Below are positions 1,821-8,524 of a stretch of 42,437 nucleotides of DNA, one piece after another. Position 1 is the first letter of the stretch; each line of letters opens with the position of its first letter. The notes under the pieces were generated by a model. That model did not search any database. It was not told where the DNA came from and saw only the letters and a list, made by a program, of their open reading frames with translations. The stretch spans positions 1 through 42,437 of IMG/VR virus record IMGVR_UViG_3300031578_000122; one strand, given 5' to 3'. Made by a program: the position numbers and the translations under genes. This DNA comes from a virus.

Positions 1821-2239
1821 CAAAGGATGATTTTGGCCGGTTCATCCCGGCTTATGGTACTGACTTTGACCTGGCCAAGCGCATAAAGGTTGGGGAAACT
1901 GTCAAGGCTGTCGTCACCAGGCCCCGGAATTACGGCTTTCATAAGAAGTATTTTGCCATGATTAGATGTTTCCATCACTGTTTGCACGAAGAACTTGCTG
2001 ACAGGTATCCTACCAGGGACTCCCTCCTGGTGGCAATTAAGATCCTGGCCGGGCATTTCGATGTAAGTTTCCTTCCGGATGGCACCGAGGTACAGATCCC
2101 GAAGTCAATATCATTTGGGGCAATGGATGATTATGCATTCGAAGAATTTTATTCCCGTACCCTGGACATTGGATTAAAATATTTTTTGCGGGACATGGAC
2201 AAGGAGGAATTTGAACAGGAGATTTTGAATTTCCTGTAA
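1805..2239 (+). CDS. DUF1367-like phage protein
   Basis: TRPRNYGFHKKYFAMIRCFHHCLHE resembles the SRNPAFHRKVFAFFNFCF signature I recall for DUF1367 proteins of lambdoid nin regions. The track ORF starts at 1778. The ATG at 1805 (MDLYLTKDD) gives less overlap. Confidence 0.5.
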   Translation: MDLYLTKDDFGRFIPAYGTDFDLAKRIKVGETVKAVVTRPRNYGFHKKYFAMIRCFHHCLHEELADRYPTRDSLLVAIKILAGHFDVSFLPDGTEVQIPKSISFGAMDDYAFEEFYSRTLDIGLKYFLRDMDKEEFEQEILNFL

Positions 2240-2252
2240 TTCATTATATTTG
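2224..2252 (+). promoter_or_regulatory. Bacteroidota-type promoter (TTTG -33-like box plus TATATTTG -7 box)
   Basis: TTTG lies at 2224..2227. TATATTTG at 2245..2252 matches the TAnnTTTG consensus, 17 nt downstream, directly after the stop of the DUF1367-like gene. Confidence 0.45.
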
Positions 2253-2263
2253 TTTATTCAATG

Positions 2264-2296
2264 CCGGGATCGTTAAAAAGCGATTTCGGTTTTTAT
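2264..2296 (+). terminator. Hairpin plus T-run (intrinsic terminator-like) upstream of the transporter gene
   Basis: ccgggatcg (2264..2272) pairs with cgatttcgg (2281..2289), with two G-U pairs. The hairpin is followed by tttttatt. Confidence 0.45.
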
Positions 2297-2316
2297 TCAC
2301 CTAATCCATTTTAATT

Positions 2317-3729
2317 ATGCAGGTTTTTTCAAGTTCGCAGGGATGGCTGATTATTGTATCATACTTTGCTATGGTCATGGTTTTAGCATACCTGTACAGC
2401 TATCGTGACAAAATTCGCACGAAGCTGAGTTTTCTTGTAGCGAACCGCACTGTATCAGGATGGCCGGCAGCCTTCTCCATCGCAGCCACCTGGATATGGG
2501 CACCCGCTTTATTCATTGCGTCTGAGAAGGCATTTACGCAAGGGATTGCAGGGGTGTTCTGGTTTACGGTTCCAAACATTCTCTGCCTGGCAGTATTCGG
2601 TTTTTTTGCTACCAGGATGCGGAACATGGTTCCTGAGGGGTGGACCTTCTCGGATCATATCCGGACTTCTTACTCAAACCGGACTCATAACCTCTACCTG
2701 GTGGAGTCATTCGGTTTACAGATTTGCTCCTTTGCCGTTCAATTGTTAGCCGGTGGAGCAATTCTGCATAAATTGACAGGGATCCCGTTTTTCTGGACTA
2801 CCCTGGCAATGGCTGTTATCCCATTTGTCTATACATACCTTAGGGGTATAAAGGCCAGTATAATGACTGACCTATGGCAAATGGCATGGATAATTTTAGT
2901 ACTGGTATTGATCCTTCCACCGATATTGGGCCATTCCGGTGACCTGGTTAAGGGCCTGGGTGGATCGAGCGGAACCTTTGATAATTTATTTGGTAAAACG
3001 GGGTGGCTGGTGTTCCTTTCCTTTGGGATACCGGCAACGGTGGGATTATTCTCCGGCCCCTTTGGTGATCAAATGTTCTGGCAGCGGGTATGGTCCATCA
3101 AGAAGAAGGATGTCAAGAAAAGTTTTCTTCATGCCTCCTGGATCTTTGGGATAGTACCCATAGTTCTGTCCACCCTGGGATTTATTTATGCCGGTAGCGG
3201 GGCTGTGAATGTGGATACACAGTTAACCAATGTCCAAGGCCTTATGATGATCACACCAAGTAGATTAATCCTTGTGCTTTTCATGTTTATGATCCTTTCC
3301 GGGCTGATATCAACCTGTGATTCTGTGATATGTGCCGTGTCCTCAGTGGTTGGACATGATATTGCCGTGAGGATCCAGGAGAGAAATATTAACAGGAAGG
3401 TTAAGCCGGTAGTTATTGCCAGAATGGCAATGGTACTGGTTACTATCCTGGCAATATGTATAGCCAACATACCAGGTATCAAAATTTTGTACTTGTGGCT
3501 ACTTTACGGGACTCTGAGATCGTCTGTACTCCTTCCGACTATCTACGCTATCTTAAAAATCAGGATGAGTGAGAAGGGCTTATTTTACGGCATTTTGATT
3601 TCAATAGTCCTGGGGGTACCGATGTTTGCCATTGGCAAATTTGGCAATCATCTTCCCTGGATACTGGCCGGTACATTTACAACCCTGTTGGCCTCAGGAA
3701 TTATATCACGACTAAAATTTAAAACATGA
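2317..3729 (+). CDS. Sodium:solute symporter (SSS) family permease, substrate unknown
   Basis: A 470-aa polytopic membrane protein with about 12-13 hydrophobic segments. The N-terminal region is SSS-like (LVANRTVSGWPAAFSIAATWIWAPALFIASEKAF). GIKASIMTDLWQ matches the conserved G..a...tD..Q segment of the family. Confidence 0.8.
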   Translation: MQVFSSSQGWLIIVSYFAMVMVLAYLYSYRDKIRTKLSFLVANRTVSGWPAAFSIAATWIWAPALFIASEKAFTQGIAGVFWFTVPNILCLAVFGFFATRMRNMVPEGWTFSDHIRTSYSNRTHNLYLVESFGLQICSFAVQLLAGGAILHKLTGIPFFWTTLAMAVIPFVYTYLRGIKASIMTDLWQMAWIILVLVLILPPILGHSGDLVKGLGGSSGTFDNLFGKTGWLVFLSFGIPATVGLFSGPFGDQMFWQRVWSIKKKDVKKSFLHASWIFGIVPIVLSTLGFIYAGSGAVNVDTQLTNVQGLMMITPSRLILVLFMFMILSGLISTCDSVICAVSSVVGHDIAVRIQERNINRKVKPVVIARMAMVLVTILAICIANIPGIKILYLWLLYGTLRSSVLLPTIYAILKIRMSEKGLFYGILISIVLGVPMFAIGKFGNHLPWILAGTFTTLLASGIISRLKFKT

Positions 3730-4343
3730 AAAAACTAATCATTATCTCCACTATCCTCTTGGTGAGCCTGGCCGTTAATGCCCAGGTTTATGATGGGATA
3801 ACACAACCTATGAAGTACCGGTTCTGGACCGGTGCAAACTCTAACGGTACGACCTTCAGTTTTGCTGGATATAAGGTTGCACCCAACGCTACCCCCTGGC
3901 TGTCCCTTACGGGTGTCACTTGGTACACTTGGCACAACAAGCAGTTTTCCACTATGCTCTGGACTAATCTGAACTACAAAAAGCAGTTCTGGTTTCTTCA
4001 CCGGGTAGGCTATAATACATTCAGCAAGAAATTCTACCAGACGTACTCCGGAACATGGAAGGCACCAAATAATTTTATGGTAGATTTCACCTGGTCAAAT
4101 ATATGGAAACAGGATGCCGGGTGGCTGGACGGGGATCAACTTCAGTTCCTTGCCGGATATAAGTATAAAAGCCTTATTGTACTCAATGCCGGGTACCGGG
4201 TGATAGGTAATGGGCAGGAGGGGTTTATAACAAATTTCAGGTTGATGTTCAATAAGGGTGAAGATGTAACCAACTGGTTGCAGATGAAATATGATTTTAC
4301 CAACAGGGTGTTTGGATTGAACGTCGCATTTCATTTTAATTAA
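3726..4343 (+). CDS. Secreted aromatic-rich protein, probable small outer-membrane beta-barrel
   Basis: The start overlaps the permease stop (ATGA). It has a Sec signal peptide, MKKLIIISTILLVSLAVNA|QVYDG. About ten short alternating hydrophobic/aromatic stretches are present (FSFAGYKV, LTGVTWYTW, MLWTNLNY, FMVDFTWS, LQFLAGYKY, LIVLNAGYRV, FITNFRLMF, WLQMKYDF, FGLNVAFHF). The C-terminus is aromatic. Confidence 0.55.
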   Translation: MKKLIIISTILLVSLAVNAQVYDGITQPMKYRFWTGANSNGTTFSFAGYKVAPNATPWLSLTGVTWYTWHNKQFSTMLWTNLNYKKQFWFLHRVGYNTFSKKFYQTYSGTWKAPNNFMVDFTWSNIWKQDAGWLDGDQLQFLAGYKYKSLIVLNAGYRVIGNGQEGFITNFRLMFNKGEDVTNWLQMKYDFTNRVFGLNVAFHFN

Positions 4344-4349
4344 TATTCT

Positions 4350-4370
4350 GAGGGGGCCATGCGCCCCCTC
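4350..4370 (+). terminator. GC-rich hairpin closing the transporter cassette
   Basis: gagggggc (4350..4357) pairs perfectly with gccccctc (4363..4370) around a 5-nt loop. Only a weak T tract follows (tt). Confidence 0.45.
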
Positions 4371-4379
4371 TTAACTACT

Positions 4380-4955
4380 ATGGCAAAAAAGAAATTCTCC
4401 CACAAGGAGATAATAGTTCCTGTCTCAGAACTCAAGGAATTCCCCGGTAACCCAAACAAACATCCGGAGCCTCAGATCCGGGCTATGGCTGAGAACATGA
4501 AACGGTTCGGCCAGTACCTACGTATTATTACTGATGAAAATTACCTAATCCTTTCAGGTCATGGGAAAAAGAGATCCCTGGAACTTGCCGGTATGAAGGA
4601 GGCTAAGATCAATATGATATCCGGTATGTCTGAGATTGAAAAGAAGGTATTGCTCCTTGCTGATAACCGTATCCAGGAAATGAGTACCATCCATATGCCT
4701 GACCTTGAGGCGATAATAAAACAGGCAGCCACCCTGGACATACCAGGCTTTTCCCAGGATTATATTGACTCTGTAATAAATGAACTCACCAGGGACAATT
4801 ACGGGGTGGATCTCCAGGCTGACATGAATGGCCTCGGGCTTAACAGCCAGGGTCCAGGAGTGGTCGGGCAGATTGACCAGGACACTAACCCTGAGAAGGG
4901 AAAAGTATATAAAGAGATTGAATGCCCATACTGCAAAAACCGATTTGAGATATGA
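4380..4955 (+). CDS. ParB-like nuclease (ParBc) domain protein with C-terminal zinc-ribbon
   Basis: ParB N-terminal domain pattern: LKEFPGNPNKHPEPQIRAMAENMKRFGQYLRIITDENYLILSGHGKKRSLELAGMKEAKI. The C-terminus ECPYCKNRFE looks like a zinc ribbon. The track start at 4359 lies in the hairpin loop, so the ATG at 4380 is preferred. Confidence 0.7.
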   Translation: MAKKKFSHKEIIVPVSELKEFPGNPNKHPEPQIRAMAENMKRFGQYLRIITDENYLILSGHGKKRSLELAGMKEAKINMISGMSEIEKKVLLLADNRIQEMSTIHMPDLEAIIKQAATLDIPGFSQDYIDSVINELTRDNYGVDLQADMNGLGLNSQGPGVVGQIDQDTNPEKGKVYKEIECPYCKNRFEI

Positions 4956-5482
4956 AGGATCTATTTACCCCCTTAAAGAATATTCAATTTGTTGATAGGG
5001 ATACCCTCAAAGCAAATGATTACAATCCTAATAAGGTACTGGAAAGAAACCTTGAATTACTTGAGAAGTCCATCCTCAGTAACGGCTTTTGTTTTCCCCT
5101 GGTGGTAAGACAGGACATGACAATCATTGATGGTTTTCACCGGTGGCTGATAGCAGGGAGAGATCCCCTAAAAACACTCCTGGGGAACAAGGTACCTATA
5201 GTTATTGTCCAGCATGAAGATAAGGCCAAGGATGTTTATGGGACCATAACATTCAACCGGGCCCGAGGCACTCACCTACTGGAACCTATGGAGCGGATAG
5301 TCCAGGGGCTATTGAAGGACGGTAAGACCGTGAAAGAGATCAGCAACCACCTGGGGATGCGCCCTGAAGAAGTGTACCGGCTTACAAAAATGGACAGGGA
5401 GGCATTTCTCAATATCATGCTTAAGGGTGAGAAGATCCCCTCCCGGGCGAGGAAGATAACGAACACCAGGCAAACGTCATGA
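4952..5482 (+). CDS. ParB/IbrB-like domain protein
   Basis: ParB/Srx-fold core: LKANDYNPNKV...SILSNGFCFPLVVRQDMTIIDGFHRW. A C-terminal HTH-like segment follows (KTVKEISNHLGMRPEEVYRL). ATGA overlaps occur at both ends. Confidence 0.65.
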   Translation: MKDLFTPLKNIQFVDRDTLKANDYNPNKVLERNLELLEKSILSNGFCFPLVVRQDMTIIDGFHRWLIAGRDPLKTLLGNKVPIVIVQHEDKAKDVYGTITFNRARGTHLLEPMERIVQGLLKDGKTVKEISNHLGMRPEEVYRLTKMDREAFLNIMLKGEKIPSRARKITNTRQTS

Positions 5483-6573
5483 TACGTCAGGTTTACTTAA
5501 AAATAAATGTTTTTACAGCAGCCAGGAAAAGGCTTATAAAGTTCTTCCAGGACTACCCCGTACTTTTCTTTTCATACTCCGGAGGGAAGGACTCAGCGGT
5601 GGTCAGTCACATGATCAGGGGCCTGATCAATGAGGGGCTTATTGATCGAAGTAAACTGCTTGTGAACTTCTTCGACGAGGAAGCTATTTACCCTTGCGTT
5701 GAGAGAGTGGTCCTACAGGAGAGAAATGAGTATTTGAAATTGGGGGTGAAGTTTTACTGGTGGTGCCTGGAATTCAAGCATTACAATTGCCTCAACCAGC
5801 TAACCAGTGATGAAACCTTCATCTGTTGGGATGCCAGGAAGAAATCAGTCTGGTGTAGGCCCAAACCGGAATTTGCATTAAACTATCACAGGGACTTTAA
5901 ACTCGGTATGAATTACCAGACCTGGTCAGACAGGGCCTTTGGAAAGTATTACAATATTATAGGAATACGGGCCAATGAATCTGTCCAGCGGTTATCTGCA
6001 TTCAGTAAGATTGTCAAGAACACCCCGAAGGTGCTTTATCCTATTTATGATTGGAAGTTAAAAGACGTGTGGTTGTATATAAAGAAGTACCAAGTGCCCA
6101 TCCCTGACGCTTATATGTACCTGTATAAGGTAGGGGTGTCCGGTGAGGCGTTACGTATAAGCCAGTTCTTCAGCATCGATACAATACGGAGCCTACCCAA
6201 GGTGTTTGAATTCTACCCAGGCCTGTATGAATCTATTCTCAAGCGTGAACCTAACGTTGAACTGGCAGCCCTCTACTTTGAAACTGATATGTTCCGGTCA
6301 ACTAAGCAAAATAAGAAATTCAAAAAGGAGGATGACTATATCGGTAAGTTCAAAAAGGAATTTTCGAGAGCAATTCAACACCCTGACTCATTCCCTGGTT
6401 TTTATAATGCTAAGTTTTTACTCAGAACAATACTATGGGAGGATCCCGTTGCATATAAAATGATGTATCAGATCCTGGTGGCCGGTGATCCAAAGAACAG
6501 ACTTACCAGGTCATGTCAGATGCATATCTCGGGTAAACACTCCCTTGCTAAAGAAGTAATGGAGCGTCCATAA
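5479..6573 (+). CDS. PAPS-reductase-family PP-loop protein, IbrA-like (with DUF3440-like C-terminal region)
   Basis: PP-loop motif SYSGGKDS. The downstream pattern is PAPS-reductase-like (IGIRANESVQR, PIYDWKLKDVWLYI). The extended C-terminus (RISQFFSID...YPGLYESI) is consistent with the DUF3440 extension seen in IbrA-type proteins. Confidence 0.7.
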   Translation: MIRQVYLKINVFTAARKRLIKFFQDYPVLFFSYSGGKDSAVVSHMIRGLINEGLIDRSKLLVNFFDEEAIYPCVERVVLQERNEYLKLGVKFYWWCLEFKHYNCLNQLTSDETFICWDARKKSVWCRPKPEFALNYHRDFKLGMNYQTWSDRAFGKYYNIIGIRANESVQRLSAFSKIVKNTPKVLYPIYDWKLKDVWLYIKKYQVPIPDAYMYLYKVGVSGEALRISQFFSIDTIRSLPKVFEFYPGLYESILKREPNVELAALYFETDMFRSTKQNKKFKKEDDYIGKFKKEFSRAIQHPDSFPGFYNAKFLLRTILWEDPVAYKMMYQILVAGDPKNRLTRSCQMHISGKHSLAKEVMERP

Positions 6574-6576
6574 ATT

Positions 6577-7125
6577 ATGTCTAAAGGTGAAAAAGGCAAA
6601 GGAGGCAGGCCCCCCGTCGAACTCGATGAGAGGCAGAAGCAACTTGTATTGTACTATGCCAGGAATGGAGTTCCGACAAAGCATCTCGCTGAGTTACTGG
6701 GTATTTCGCGTTCCGCCTTTTATAATATTCTCCGCAGAGATCCTGAGGTTTATGCACTTTATAGACAGGGTGTCCTTCTTGCGAATGTTGCTGTCAGTAA
6801 TTGGCTGTTTGAATCTTGCAAGCCGGTGGTCAAGCAAATACCATTGATAGATGCTGACGGCAACCAAGTTATAGATCCAGGAACCGGTGAACCAAAGTTC
6901 TATGAACAGGTAGTACAGCGGGGATCTATTGAGGCTCAAAAGTTCTGGCTCCGGACACGGGCAGGATGGAAGGACCGGTTCTATATTGAGCATACTCCAC
7001 CGGTAGAGGATGATGATTTAGATGAACTTGAAATTTTACCAGATGAGGACATTAGAACCATCGTTGAAATTGGTCGAAAACTGGAAGGCTTACGAGAGGA
7101 AGATCGCGAGGAAATATCTGATTGA
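6577..7125 (+). CDS. Terminase small subunit (putative)
   Basis: N-terminal HTH (VPTKHLAELLGISRSAFYNIL) and an acidic C-terminus. It sits immediately upstream of, and overlaps, the large terminase. Confidence 0.6.
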   Translation: MSKGEKGKGGRPPVELDERQKQLVLYYARNGVPTKHLAELLGISRSAFYNILRRDPEVYALYRQGVLLANVAVSNWLFESCKPVVKQIPLIDADGNQVIDPGTGEPKFYEQVVQRGSIEAQKFWLRTRAGWKDRFYIEHTPPVEDDDLDELEILPDEDIRTIVEIGRKLEGLREEDREEISD

Positions 7126-8524
7126 GTTTATCCAGTACATGAAACCGGGGCTGGCATATCGCGCTCAATGGTTTCATAAGGTTATCTGTGAGAAAATAGA
7201 TGCATTGATCCGTGGAGATTTTTACAGGTTGATGATCTTTACACCCCCGCAACACGGAAAATCTGAAATTGTATCCAGGATGCTCCCAGCCTTTCTCCTG
7301 GGTCTGGATCCTGATACCAAAATGACGGTGGCCTCCTATGCTCAATCCCTGGCCAGGCAATTTAACCGTGAAACTCAAAGAATAATTGACAGTGAACGTT
7401 ACCGGGCCATATTTCCAAGGAGCATACTTGCCGGCATGGACACTATTGATACAGACAGTTTCCGGTCAGTGACCAGGACGGCCAGTGCATTTGAAATGCA
7501 TGAGGCCTTAGGAGGGCTTGTGAGTGTAGGTGTGGGGTCAGGCCTTACAGGTAGGCCAGTGGACTTCGGGATAATAGATGACCCCGTAAAGGACGCTGAT
7601 CAGGCCTACAGTGAAGTTTACCGGGATAAAGTATGGGAGTGGTACACTCACGTCCTTAAAACCAGGCTACACAATGAGAGTAAAATTGCATTCACAATGA
7701 CCAGGTGGCATGATGATGACCTGGCCGGTAGAATAGAGAAGATTCAGGATGAAAGCGAAGAACGCTGGGAAACGATTATTTTCCCAGCTATAAAAGAAGG
7801 CCCCCCTAATCAACATGATCCTCGCTATGAGGGTGAGGCCCTATGGGAAGAACGACACTCAGCAAAGAGAATCCTGGCTGTGAAGAAAATTTCAGAAAAG
7901 GTATTCAATTCCCTGTATCAACAGGTCCCGGCCCCGAAGGAAGGGAACCGTATTAAGGAAAAATGGTTCGGGAGGTTTTTACTTAGTGACCTGGAACACC
8001 GGGCCTATGATCATGACAAGGAAATCATTTGGGATTTTACAATAGATGGAGCATATACTGACAAGGATATTAATGATCCTACTGCAATTCTGGCCTTCTG
8101 CAGGATCTTTAATTGCATGTATGTCCGGGAGGTGGCTGTGGTAAGGATGGAAATGCCTGATCTTTTACGTTTCATACCTGAATTTGTATATCGAAATGGA
8201 TATAAGGAAACTTCCCGTATATGGATTGAACCTAATGCCTCCGGCAGATCAGTGGCGCAGATGGTAAAGGCAAATACCAAATTAAATATTATAATTGATA
8301 AGGCCCCGGAGATAAGCAAGGAGGCCAGGGTAGAGAAGTGTTCCCCTTACATGGAATCGGGTAGGGTGTTCCTGCTTGAGGGAGGATCCTGGGTAAATGA
8401 CTATCTTTATGAATTAAAAATGTTTTCCAACACCAAGCACGACGACCAGGTGGATGTTACCACGATGGCCATTGACAAGGACTTTGACTTTTCATCTGAA
8501 ATATATGACATGGCTACTATTTAA
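7022..8524 (+). CDS. terL: Terminase large subunit
   Basis: Walker A-like TPPQHGKSE and Walker B FGIIDDP. MTRWHDDDLAGRI is present, and the C-terminal nuclease motif is KHDDQVDVTTMAI. The start is uncertain: 7022 or 7043 overlap terS, and the next ATG is at 7139. Confidence 0.9.
   Translation: MNLKFYQMRTLEPSLKLVENWKAYERKIARKYLIEFIQYMKPGLAYRAQWFHKVICEKIDALIRGDFYRLMIFTPPQHGKSEIVSRMLPAFLLGLDPDTKMTVASYAQSLARQFNRETQRIIDSERYRAIFPRSILAGMDTIDTDSFRSVTRTASAFEMHEALGGLVSVGVGSGLTGRPVDFGIIDDPVKDADQAYSEVYRDKVWEWYTHVLKTRLHNESKIAFTMTRWHDDDLAGRIEKIQDESEERWETIIFPAIKEGPPNQHDPRYEGEALWEERHSAKRILAVKKISEKVFNSLYQQVPAPKEGNRIKEKWFGRFLLSDLEHRAYDHDKEIIWDFTIDGAYTDKDINDPTAILAFCRIFNCMYVREVAVVRMEMPDLLRFIPEFVYRNGYKETSRIWIEPNASGRSVAQMVKANTKLNIIIDKAPEISKEARVEKCSPYMESGRVFLLEGGSWVNDYLYELKMFSNTKHDDQVDVTTMAIDKDFDFSSEIYDMATI

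Follow-up and report, generated by a model that had tools for sequence, protein, structure and literature searches.

KdgM and NanC are monomeric, substrate-specific outer-membrane channels of Enterobacteria, and in Escherichia coli NanC feeds an inner-membrane sialic-acid transporter. To our knowledge, tailed phages have rarely been noted to encode secondary active transporters; cyanophage PstS, by which a phage gene enhances uptake in the infected host, is a periplasmic binding protein supplying the host's own ABC transporter. Here we describe a two-gene unit in IMG/VR virus record IMGVR_UViG_3300031578_000122, analysed over its whole length of 42,437 nucleotides (hereafter the window), in which a permease of the sodium:solute symporter (SSS) family is followed by a small secreted beta-barrel protein. 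Like PstS, this pair would raise the uptake capacity of the infected cell; in contrast to PstS, it is predicted to serve both membranes and is linked to phage enzymes. The SSS-barrel pair is an optional front end of a conserved phage module and not a free-standing moron, and we propose, with slightly more confidence than doubt, that it forms a two-membrane uptake route serving the adjacent PP-loop/ParB-like enzymes. Our literature searches turned up no description of a transporter or outer-membrane channel within the phage ParB/PAPS-reductase (PAPS, 3'-phosphoadenosine 5'-phosphosulfate; IbrA/IbrB, 'viral CysH') module, and nothing on an SSS-barrel pairing or on a phage supplying both the outer- and the inner-membrane leg of uptake. 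While the SSS family and the barrel architecture are already known, the pairing, its envelope-dependent presence, the PP-loop/ParB linkage and the barrel sequence family are new. The pair comprises the following features:

2317 to 3729, plus strand: SSS-family (LeuT-fold) secondary transporter, 470 aa (PF00474, phrog_20720, AlphaFold2/Foldseek)
3726 to 4343, plus strand: secreted 205-aa protein, predicted minimal 12-stranded outer-membrane beta-barrel (AlphaFold2, Foldseek)
3726 to 3782, plus strand: signal peptide of the 205-aa protein, residues 1-19, predicted cleavage between AVNA and Q (sequence; family conservation)

A first-pass annotation, made by a model from the sequence alone, had called the 470-aa protein a sodium:solute symporter, and comparison with PF00474 (Transporter Classification 2.A.21) upheld this with a full-length match (E 8e-21; 74.8 bits at a cut-off of 22.8; profile positions 1-405 of 406). 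The permease also matched phrog_20720, a phage family of unknown function, at E 7e-103. Its best NCBIfam equivalogs were PutP (TIGR02121; 53.1 bits at a cut-off of 515.5) and PanF (TIGR02119; 34 at 328), scores far too low for equivalog membership, and with the superfamily model TIGR00813 it reached 102.5 bits, under the 184-bit cut-off. An AlphaFold2 model built from 30 homologues (predicted local distance difference test score, pLDDT, 86.6; predicted template modelling score, pTM, 0.84) gave Foldseek matches with query-normalised TM-scores (TMq) of 0.73-0.82 overall, among them DUR3 (0.80-0.82), CHT1 (0.76-0.78), SiaT (0.77) and SGLT, and a sequence-profile search of the PDB returned the same ranking with DUR3 and CHT1 closest. 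DUR3 is a urea/H+ transporter and CHT1 a choline/Na+ transporter. As the best sequence-profile and structural matches, both share with the window permease the full-length LeuT-fold SSS architecture; in contrast to DUR3, CHT1, PutP and PanF, the window permease falls into a separate clade that adjoins PP-loop enzymes. More than 2000 homologues were recovered. At least 100 invariant SSS positions are distributed across the transport core. Taken with the modelled fold, the window permease is predicted to be a bona fide SSS-fold transporter of a distinct clade. Among GenBank phages, SSS relatives were confined to two fecal 'Bacteriophage sp.' records without annotation (40% and 23% identity), and the barrel was absent.

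The downstream 205-aa protein had been described as a Sec-exported beta-barrel of about ten strands; signal peptide and barrel held, while the strand number had to be raised to 12. Its N-terminus, MKKLIIISTILLVSLAVNA followed by Q, fits a signal peptidase I site, and among 51 homologues A19 is nearly invariant and Q20 invariant. The AlphaFold2 model (pLDDT 86.7, pTM 0.76) consists of 12 antiparallel strands, preceded by a helix at residues 2-13 and a low-confidence linker. No match was obtained in Pfam or NCBIfam (both at E up to 0.1), PHROG or PADLOC. All Foldseek matches at E <0.001 were outer-membrane beta-barrel proteins, either natural or designed; among the former, KdgM (TMq 0.61-0.63; target-normalised TM-score, TMt, 0.71-0.73) and NanC (0.59) ranked best, and designed 10- and 12-stranded transmembrane barrels scored high as well. 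With KdgM and NanC (PDB 4fqe, 4pr7, 2wjq) the protein shares a 12-stranded barrel of about 180-205 residues. It differs from these Enterobacteria proteins in lacking detectable sequence similarity (7-9% identity in structural alignments, no Pfam match), in being nearly devoid of extracellular loops, in a conserved N-terminal extension (QVYDGITQP) and in stemming from Bacteroidota phages. An initial search gave four relatives and a profile search 232 clusters, and an exhaustive hidden Markov model search of 1.84 billion representative proteins yielded only 45 family members. On the basis of model and searches, the barrel is a narrow new sequence family of known architecture, and it is predicted to act like a minimal KdgM/NanC-type channel, without sequence membership in that family. 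We did not adopt the more specific analogy to sialic-acid uptake by NanC plus SiaT: SiaT was a weaker match than DUR3 and CHT1, and the likeness of the barrel is architectural only.

Most strands of the barrel show one hydrophobic/aromatic and one polar face. The invariant polar residues are found mainly on the more polar of the two; strand periodicity was the sole basis for judging what lines the pore and where the N-terminal segment sits. Apart from one exception, the loops measure 2-4 residues. These properties bear on an alternative in which the barrel would be a Lom/Ail/Bor-like surface protein that excludes superinfecting phages, confers resistance to serum or immunity, or masks receptors, and that is co-transcribed with the permease only incidentally; the first-pass annotation had already raised a Lom/Ail-like protein for superinfection exclusion. 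Phages are well known to encode outer-membrane proteins with such functions, and the size is near that of Lom. The modelled barrel, however, has 12 strands where the Ail/Lom family has 8, Pfam returned no Ail_Lom match, and Foldseek pointed to KdgM/NanC and designed barrels, so that we rejected membership in the Ail/Lom family. The short loops leave almost nothing exposed at the surface, the conserved residues are mostly polar and sit on the more polar strand faces and not in loops, and the barrel was never seen without the SSS gene in IMG/VR loci with upstream sequence. We therefore consider a surface role very improbable. Compact, almost loop-less and specific to Bacteroidota phages, the family deserves attention in studies of outer-membrane biogenesis and as a scaffold for engineering.

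Conservation in the barrel family is highest in QVYDGITQP at the mature N-terminus (window positions 3783-3821, residues 20-32). In the 51 sequences, Q20, D23, G24, T26 and Q27 are invariant and the remaining positions at least 90% conserved. The stretch is not part of any barrel strand, has low model confidence, and could be a plug, an SSS-docking peptide or a biogenesis signal.

Downstream of the pair, and on the same strand, the window continues as follows:

4380 to 4955, plus strand: ParB-like protein with a C-terminal CPxC motif, 191 aa when read from the corrected start (phrog_620, E 3e-28)
4952 to 5482, plus strand: ParB_N-domain protein (IbrB-like), 176 aa (PF02195, E 2e-6)
5479 to 6573, plus strand: PAPS-reductase-fold PP-loop protein (IbrA/DndC/BrxP-like), 364 aa, with an SGGKDS motif (PF01507, E 5e-9; BrxP, E 4e-7)
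6577 to 8524, plus strand: small-terminase-like helix-turn-helix protein and large terminase (TerL), forming the end of the block (HTH_23, Terminase_6N/6C, Pfam)

This arrangement is widespread. Scanning IMG/VR with the barrel alignment gave 79 viral contigs; the SSS gene lay directly upstream of the barrel, always in the same position, in 76 of the 76 with upstream sequence, and 67 contigs showed the full order SSS, barrel, 260-aa PP-loop protein, ParB-like, ParB_N and PAPS-reductase-like. In a GTDB scan with the SSS alignment, followed by tblastn of the window proteins, all 15 Bacteroidota-type loci (L006-L020) carried these six genes and TerL, the PP-loop gene of L007 being cut off by the contig end. 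The usual block after the pair thus comprises an optional 260-aa PP-loop protein, the ParB-like, ParB_N and PAPS-reductase-like proteins and then the terminase, all on the same strand. Overall, hundreds of phages and prophages share the pair as a conserved feature, and many relatives are prophages integrated in Bacteroides chromosomes. The SSS homologue of Bacteroides ovatus/xylanisolvens (P0091; 55% identity, at least 1000 contigs) is located in a prophage with the order SSS, 202-aa barrel, 260-aa PP-loop, ParB-like, ParB_N, PAPS-reductase-like, small protein, TerL and portal, and this version is indexed in 2887 collection blocks. Because the prophage SSS occurs on at least 1000 contigs, the module is common in human-gut Bacteroides lysogens. 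The same gene order was found in contig L005 and, without the 260-aa PP-loop gene, in the Mu-like phage L004.

The linkage to ParB/PAPS genes is robust to rearrangement. The closest relative of the window SSS (67% identity) lies in the order ParB, SSS, 212-aa protein, ParB_N, 187-aa protein, PAPS_reduct plus DUF3440, ParB_N. Linkage is kept despite changes in gene order, gain and loss of the 260-aa gene, Mu-like versus SPP1-like portals and 40-67% SSS divergence. A ParB-like gene follows the SSS gene or the SSS-barrel pair in nearly all phage loci, and among phage-type SSS loci with enough downstream sequence, ParB/PAPS genes were missing only in L085 and L164-L168. Conversely, of 58 IMG/VR loci with close ParB_N relatives and at least 4.5 kb of upstream sequence, 43 had an SSS gene and 15 had none, and therefore the ParB/PAPS module can exist alone. 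In L164-L168 (IMG/VR), the barrel at 6001-6360 is truncated at about residue 129, the ParB/PAPS block is gone and TerL follows directly; from the sequence, this looks like a single deletion and a natural knock-out.

If the barrel is an outer-membrane leg, its presence should follow the host envelope. Around 50 Clostridia prophage loci, including Clostridioides difficile, carried SSS, the 260-aa PP-loop protein, ParB-like, PAPS and ParB_N genes but no barrel, and the next gene started less than 100 nt after the SSS gene. In the C. difficile prophage locus, the order is RusA and, further on, SSS, PAPS_reduct, ParB-like, PAPS_reduct, ParB_N, small terminase (TerS), TerL and an SPP1-type portal. 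That the barrel occurs in Bacteroidota phages and is missing from the corresponding module in monoderm-Clostridia phages supports its assignment as the outer-membrane leg, and the phages of diderm and monoderm hosts provide a natural control for this functional assignment. The two-membrane uptake function inferred in the first-pass annotation thus gains strong comparative support, with the SSS gene always accompanied by the barrel in Bacteroidota phages, and the barrel absent from the module of Clostridia phages. A caveat to the pattern comes from two metagenome-assembled genomes (MAGs) in GTDB, L014 (Eubacteriales) and L015 (Oscillospiraceae), whose phage-sized contigs carry a Bacteroidota-type SSS gene, a barrel and a TAnnTTTG promoter; these are probably phage contigs mis-binned into Firmicutes MAGs.

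The SSS clade also has cellular members, 44-49% identical to the window permease, in Planctomycetota, Spirochaetota, Proteobacteria, Electrothrix and other lineages, where it is part of the following operon:

L023, positions 3794 to 8413 (also in L021, L022, L024, L025, L028, L031 and L033): cellular operon encoding an approximately 325-aa protein that weakly matches Top6A/Spo11-Toprim, a tetratricopeptide repeat (TPR) protein, an AsnB-like amidotransferase and SSS; no PADLOC match

The SSS gene stands directly beside the AsnB-like amidotransferase gene in at least five phyla, and in one alphaproteobacterial MAG it is followed by a gene for a ProRS-like protein. Given these neighbours and the PP-loop proteins of the phages, the SSS clade adjoins ATP-pyrophosphatase/adenylating enzymes in both cells and phages. 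In a neighbour-joining tree, the Bacteroidota-phage, Clostridia-phage and cellular SSS sequences formed separate clades, in which the root and the monophyly of the two phage clades were not resolved. Neither the SSS, barrel and 260-aa PP-loop proteins nor the AsnB-like and Toprim-like proteins of the cellular operon matched a defence system in PADLOC.

Whether the two genes form a unit of their own depends on the signals at their borders, which are the following:

2224 to 2252, plus strand: promoter-like element of the Bacteroidota -33/-7 type, TTTG at 2224-2227, 17 nt, TATATTTG at 2245-2252; motif match only, overlapping the end of the NinB gene
2263 to 2298, plus strand: leader hairpin with T-run, 12 pairs at 2263-2290 followed by TTTTTATT, between the promoter-like element and the SSS start codon
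4350 to 4370, plus strand: perfect 8-bp hairpin GAGGGGGC-catgc-GCCCCCTC (dG -17.7) within the 36 nt that separate the barrel gene from the ParB-like gene

All of these had been noted from the sequence beforehand, as had the DUF1367-like gene preceding the permease, which Pfam and PHROG matches confirmed as DUF1367/NinB, and the ATGA at 3726-3729 that is shared by the SSS stop and the barrel start. Across 39 distinct SSS-barrel junctions, this 4-nt ATGA overlap was seen in 11 and a gap of 4-38 nt in 12, while the remainder hold small inserted open reading frames (ORFs). At L006, for instance, two small overlapping ORFs (89 and 103 aa) separate SSS and barrel. In a 762-aa database ORF (P0241), SSS and barrel are read as one protein, likely through a frameshift or sequencing error at the overlapping junction and not as a real fusion.

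The element TATATTTG fits the Bacteroidota -7 consensus TAnnTTTG. This motif is depleted in the window (23 matches compared to 35 expected, only 9 of them on the plus strand) and yet occurs within -160 to -15 of the SSS start in 50 of 62 distinct relatives, mostly at -39 to -59. This recurrence speaks for a genuine promoter ahead of the block, one that would most likely serve all of its genes and not the first two alone. A scan for sigma-70 promoters gave only 9-of-12 matches scattered inside genes and is uninformative for Bacteroidota.

The leader hairpin (2263-2290; dG -15.4 kcal/mol, z-score -2.07) could be a leader terminator or attenuator, or the terminator of the upstream operon. Together with its T-run it begins about 11 nt past TATATTTG (window 2245-2298), ahead of the first gene of the late/packaging block, and the succession of promoter, hairpin and T-run is reminiscent of lambda PR'-tR' antitermination control, a parallel that we draw by analogy only. 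Unlike in the window, the hairpin of the relatives lies upstream of the TAnnTTTG box. In many of them (L001, L009, L012, L014, L090-L164 and others), a conserved ACAAATGTTACA, often with a second GTTACA copy, is found between the box and the SSS start, and a conserved hairpin of the GTGCGC-TTATTA-GGCGCAC type lies just upstream of the box. Both are possible operator or terminator sites, and neither is present in the window.

The pair had initially been interpreted as an insulated moron cassette closed by the hairpin at 4350-4370. Like the lambda lom and bor morons, it is preceded by a promoter-like element, is followed by a hairpin and encodes a product destined for the envelope. In contrast to these, however, the window pair is conserved, its composition equals that of the flanks (GC content 0.42-0.49 inside the cassette and 0.43-0.48 outside, without discontinuity), and its barrel has 12 strands rather than 8. 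Neither sporadic presence nor deviant base composition, two marks of a moron, was therefore found. The perfect 8-bp GC hairpin itself is real, but lacking a T-run, it is not a canonical intrinsic terminator, and it is absent in most relatives, where the next gene begins within a few bases of the barrel stop. Gene callers place the ParB-like start at an ATG at 4359, in the hairpin loop; alignment with four homologues corrected it to the ATG at 4380, and the hairpin is thus intergenic. Instead of ending there, the pair runs into the ParB/PAPS/terminase block.

A less rigid version of the same idea is an independent auxiliary metabolic or lysogenic-conversion cassette that scavenges nutrients for the host and came to lie beside the ParB/PAPS genes because the pre-terminase region tolerates insertions. 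The host-type TAnnTTTG promoter directly upstream in the window and in most relatives would suit such a cassette, as would the ParB/PAPS modules without an SSS gene, the integration of many relatives as Bacteroides prophages, and the possibility that the hairpin at 4350-4370 attenuates read-through in the window phage. A hitch-hiker would not, however, be expected to keep its ParB/PAPS linkage through a change of host phylum, two different gene orders and a variety of virion modules. A GC content equal to the flanks, the immediate start of the next gene in most relatives and the tie of the cellular SSS relatives to a PP-loop enzyme likewise speak against it. We hold this explanation to be rather unlikely, though it deserves serious weighing. 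That the arrangement is an assembly chimera, as had been considered before, or host DNA captured at a prophage end, is hardly credible: identical arrangements were assembled from four independent samples in contigs that are circularly permuted relative to each other, and the same synteny recurs in hundreds of viral contigs. With a uniform GC content and the same phage recovered independently four times, both chimerism and a recent insertion are excluded.

We thus return to the uptake route. From the modelled folds of both proteins, the gene linkage and the phyletic pattern of the barrel, we infer transport itself, together with a coupling ion, a solute and a metabolic link to the ParB/PAPS enzymes. 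Both genes, overlapping or tightly spaced behind a host-type promoter, would be expressed from one transcript. The 12-stranded channel in the outer membrane and the ion-coupled SSS symporter in the inner membrane would then constitute a phage-borne uptake route, whose most likely role would be to import a small polar solute that is consumed during infection by the adjacent adenylating enzymes, plausibly for nucleic-acid modification. The ParB/PAPS link suggests that the long-unexplained enzyme pair ahead of the terminase consumes an imported small molecule, and its function thereby becomes testable.

A more specific version, which we regard as unlikely, has a small amine or amide (the DUR3/CHT1/PutP substrate class) imported and ligated onto phage DNA bases by the PP-loop ATPases. 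Here, the chemistry would be an adenylate-activated substitution of the TilS/GMP-synthase type with the ParB-like nucleoside triphosphatases as guides, the precursor would come from the gut lumen, the whole would amount to a new route of DNA hypermodification, and the cellular operon of AsnB-like, SSS and Toprim-like genes would be the chromosomal counterpart. Modification of the 7-deazaguanine (Dpd-like) type was rejected, as no TGT/DpdA or QueC/D/E genes were found in the annotated parts of the window, in a scan that was not exhaustive.

Several points weigh against an uptake route that serves the neighbouring enzymes. The closest solved relatives of the permease are only 15-20% identical to it, and because DUR3 is H+-coupled, Na+ coupling is not a given. 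The conserved N-terminal segment of the barrel, modelled with low confidence, could plug the lumen. Transcription of the block, if late, would leave little time for the action of an outer-membrane protein dependent on Sec and the beta-barrel assembly machinery (BAM). The 260-aa PP-loop gene is missing from the window phage and from L004, the literature on phage IbrA/IbrB-like pairs mostly labels them as CysH auxiliary metabolic genes, and adjacency to ParB/PAPS genes could mirror a shared insertion hot-spot ahead of the terminase instead of shared biochemistry.

The position of the pair at the head of the late/packaging block also allows a signalling role, in which the SSS protein would act as a transceptor that reports a solute arriving via the barrel to the IbrA/IbrB-like proteins and gates late-gene expression or packaging. 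SSS domains are sensor modules in some histidine kinases. IbrA/IbrB carry the SEED subsystem label 'coactivators of prophage gene expression', the role in which they were originally described, and the K/R-rich cytoplasmic tail of the B. ovatus prophage SSS would also fit a transceptor. The window SSS, however, has no extra cytoplasmic domain, the invariant positions extend across the transport core, and regulation of transcription by ParB/PAPS proteins in phages is unsupported by evidence, which makes a transceptor quite unlikely in our view. The tail in question, about 95 aa at the C-terminus of the common B. ovatus/B. xylanisolvens prophage SSS (L001:9430-9692), is coiled-coil-like, and a tail of this type is absent from the window SSS.

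Within the two-membrane uptake reading, the ParB/PAPS proteins are the candidate consumers of the solute. The conserved module is made up of ParB/Srx-like proteins and PAPS-reductase-fold PP-loop ATPases. The adjacent PF01507 and PF02195 genes of the window constitute an IbrA/IbrB-like module, and the ParB_N protein shows 55-72% identity among phage loci of Bacteroidota and Clostridia. For phages of Bacteroidetes and Firmicutes, bioRxiv 10.1101/2021.01.05.425418 notes CysH-like viral genes that carry DUF3440. The genes directly downstream of the SSS-barrel pair are of the same type as the phage IbrA/IbrB-like ('viral CysH') pairs found upstream of the terminase; these relatives have a PAPS_reduct plus DUF3440 architecture, whereas DUF3440 was not found in the window protein (it is present in the PAPS_reduct proteins of L131 and L169). 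A true CysH of sulfur assimilation was rejected for the 364-aa protein, in which the ECG(L/I)H motif is missing and CysD/PRK13795 gave only weak matches below cut-off. Further downstream, the small-terminase-like ORF (6577-7125) and the longest TerL ORF (7022-8524) overlap by about 100 nt, and the TerL start differs among the gene calls of sibling contigs, resulting in proteins of 461-486 aa.

The window as a whole represents the roughly 43-kb genome of a gut Bacteroidota phage; its major genes, among them those for head protease, portal, terminase and amidase endolysin, all lie on the plus strand. No tRNAs were found in the window, and no Rfam family reached threshold anywhere in it, the leader, in which riboswitches and known RNAs were looked for, included. 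A non-exhaustive scan of the window proteins revealed neither integrase nor repressor, and the window phage may thus, unlike its prophage relatives, be non-temperate. Every window ORF of at least 150 aa is on the plus strand, and an HNH/NUMOD4 homing-endonuclease-like gene lies at 265-945, among small early genes upstream of NinB.

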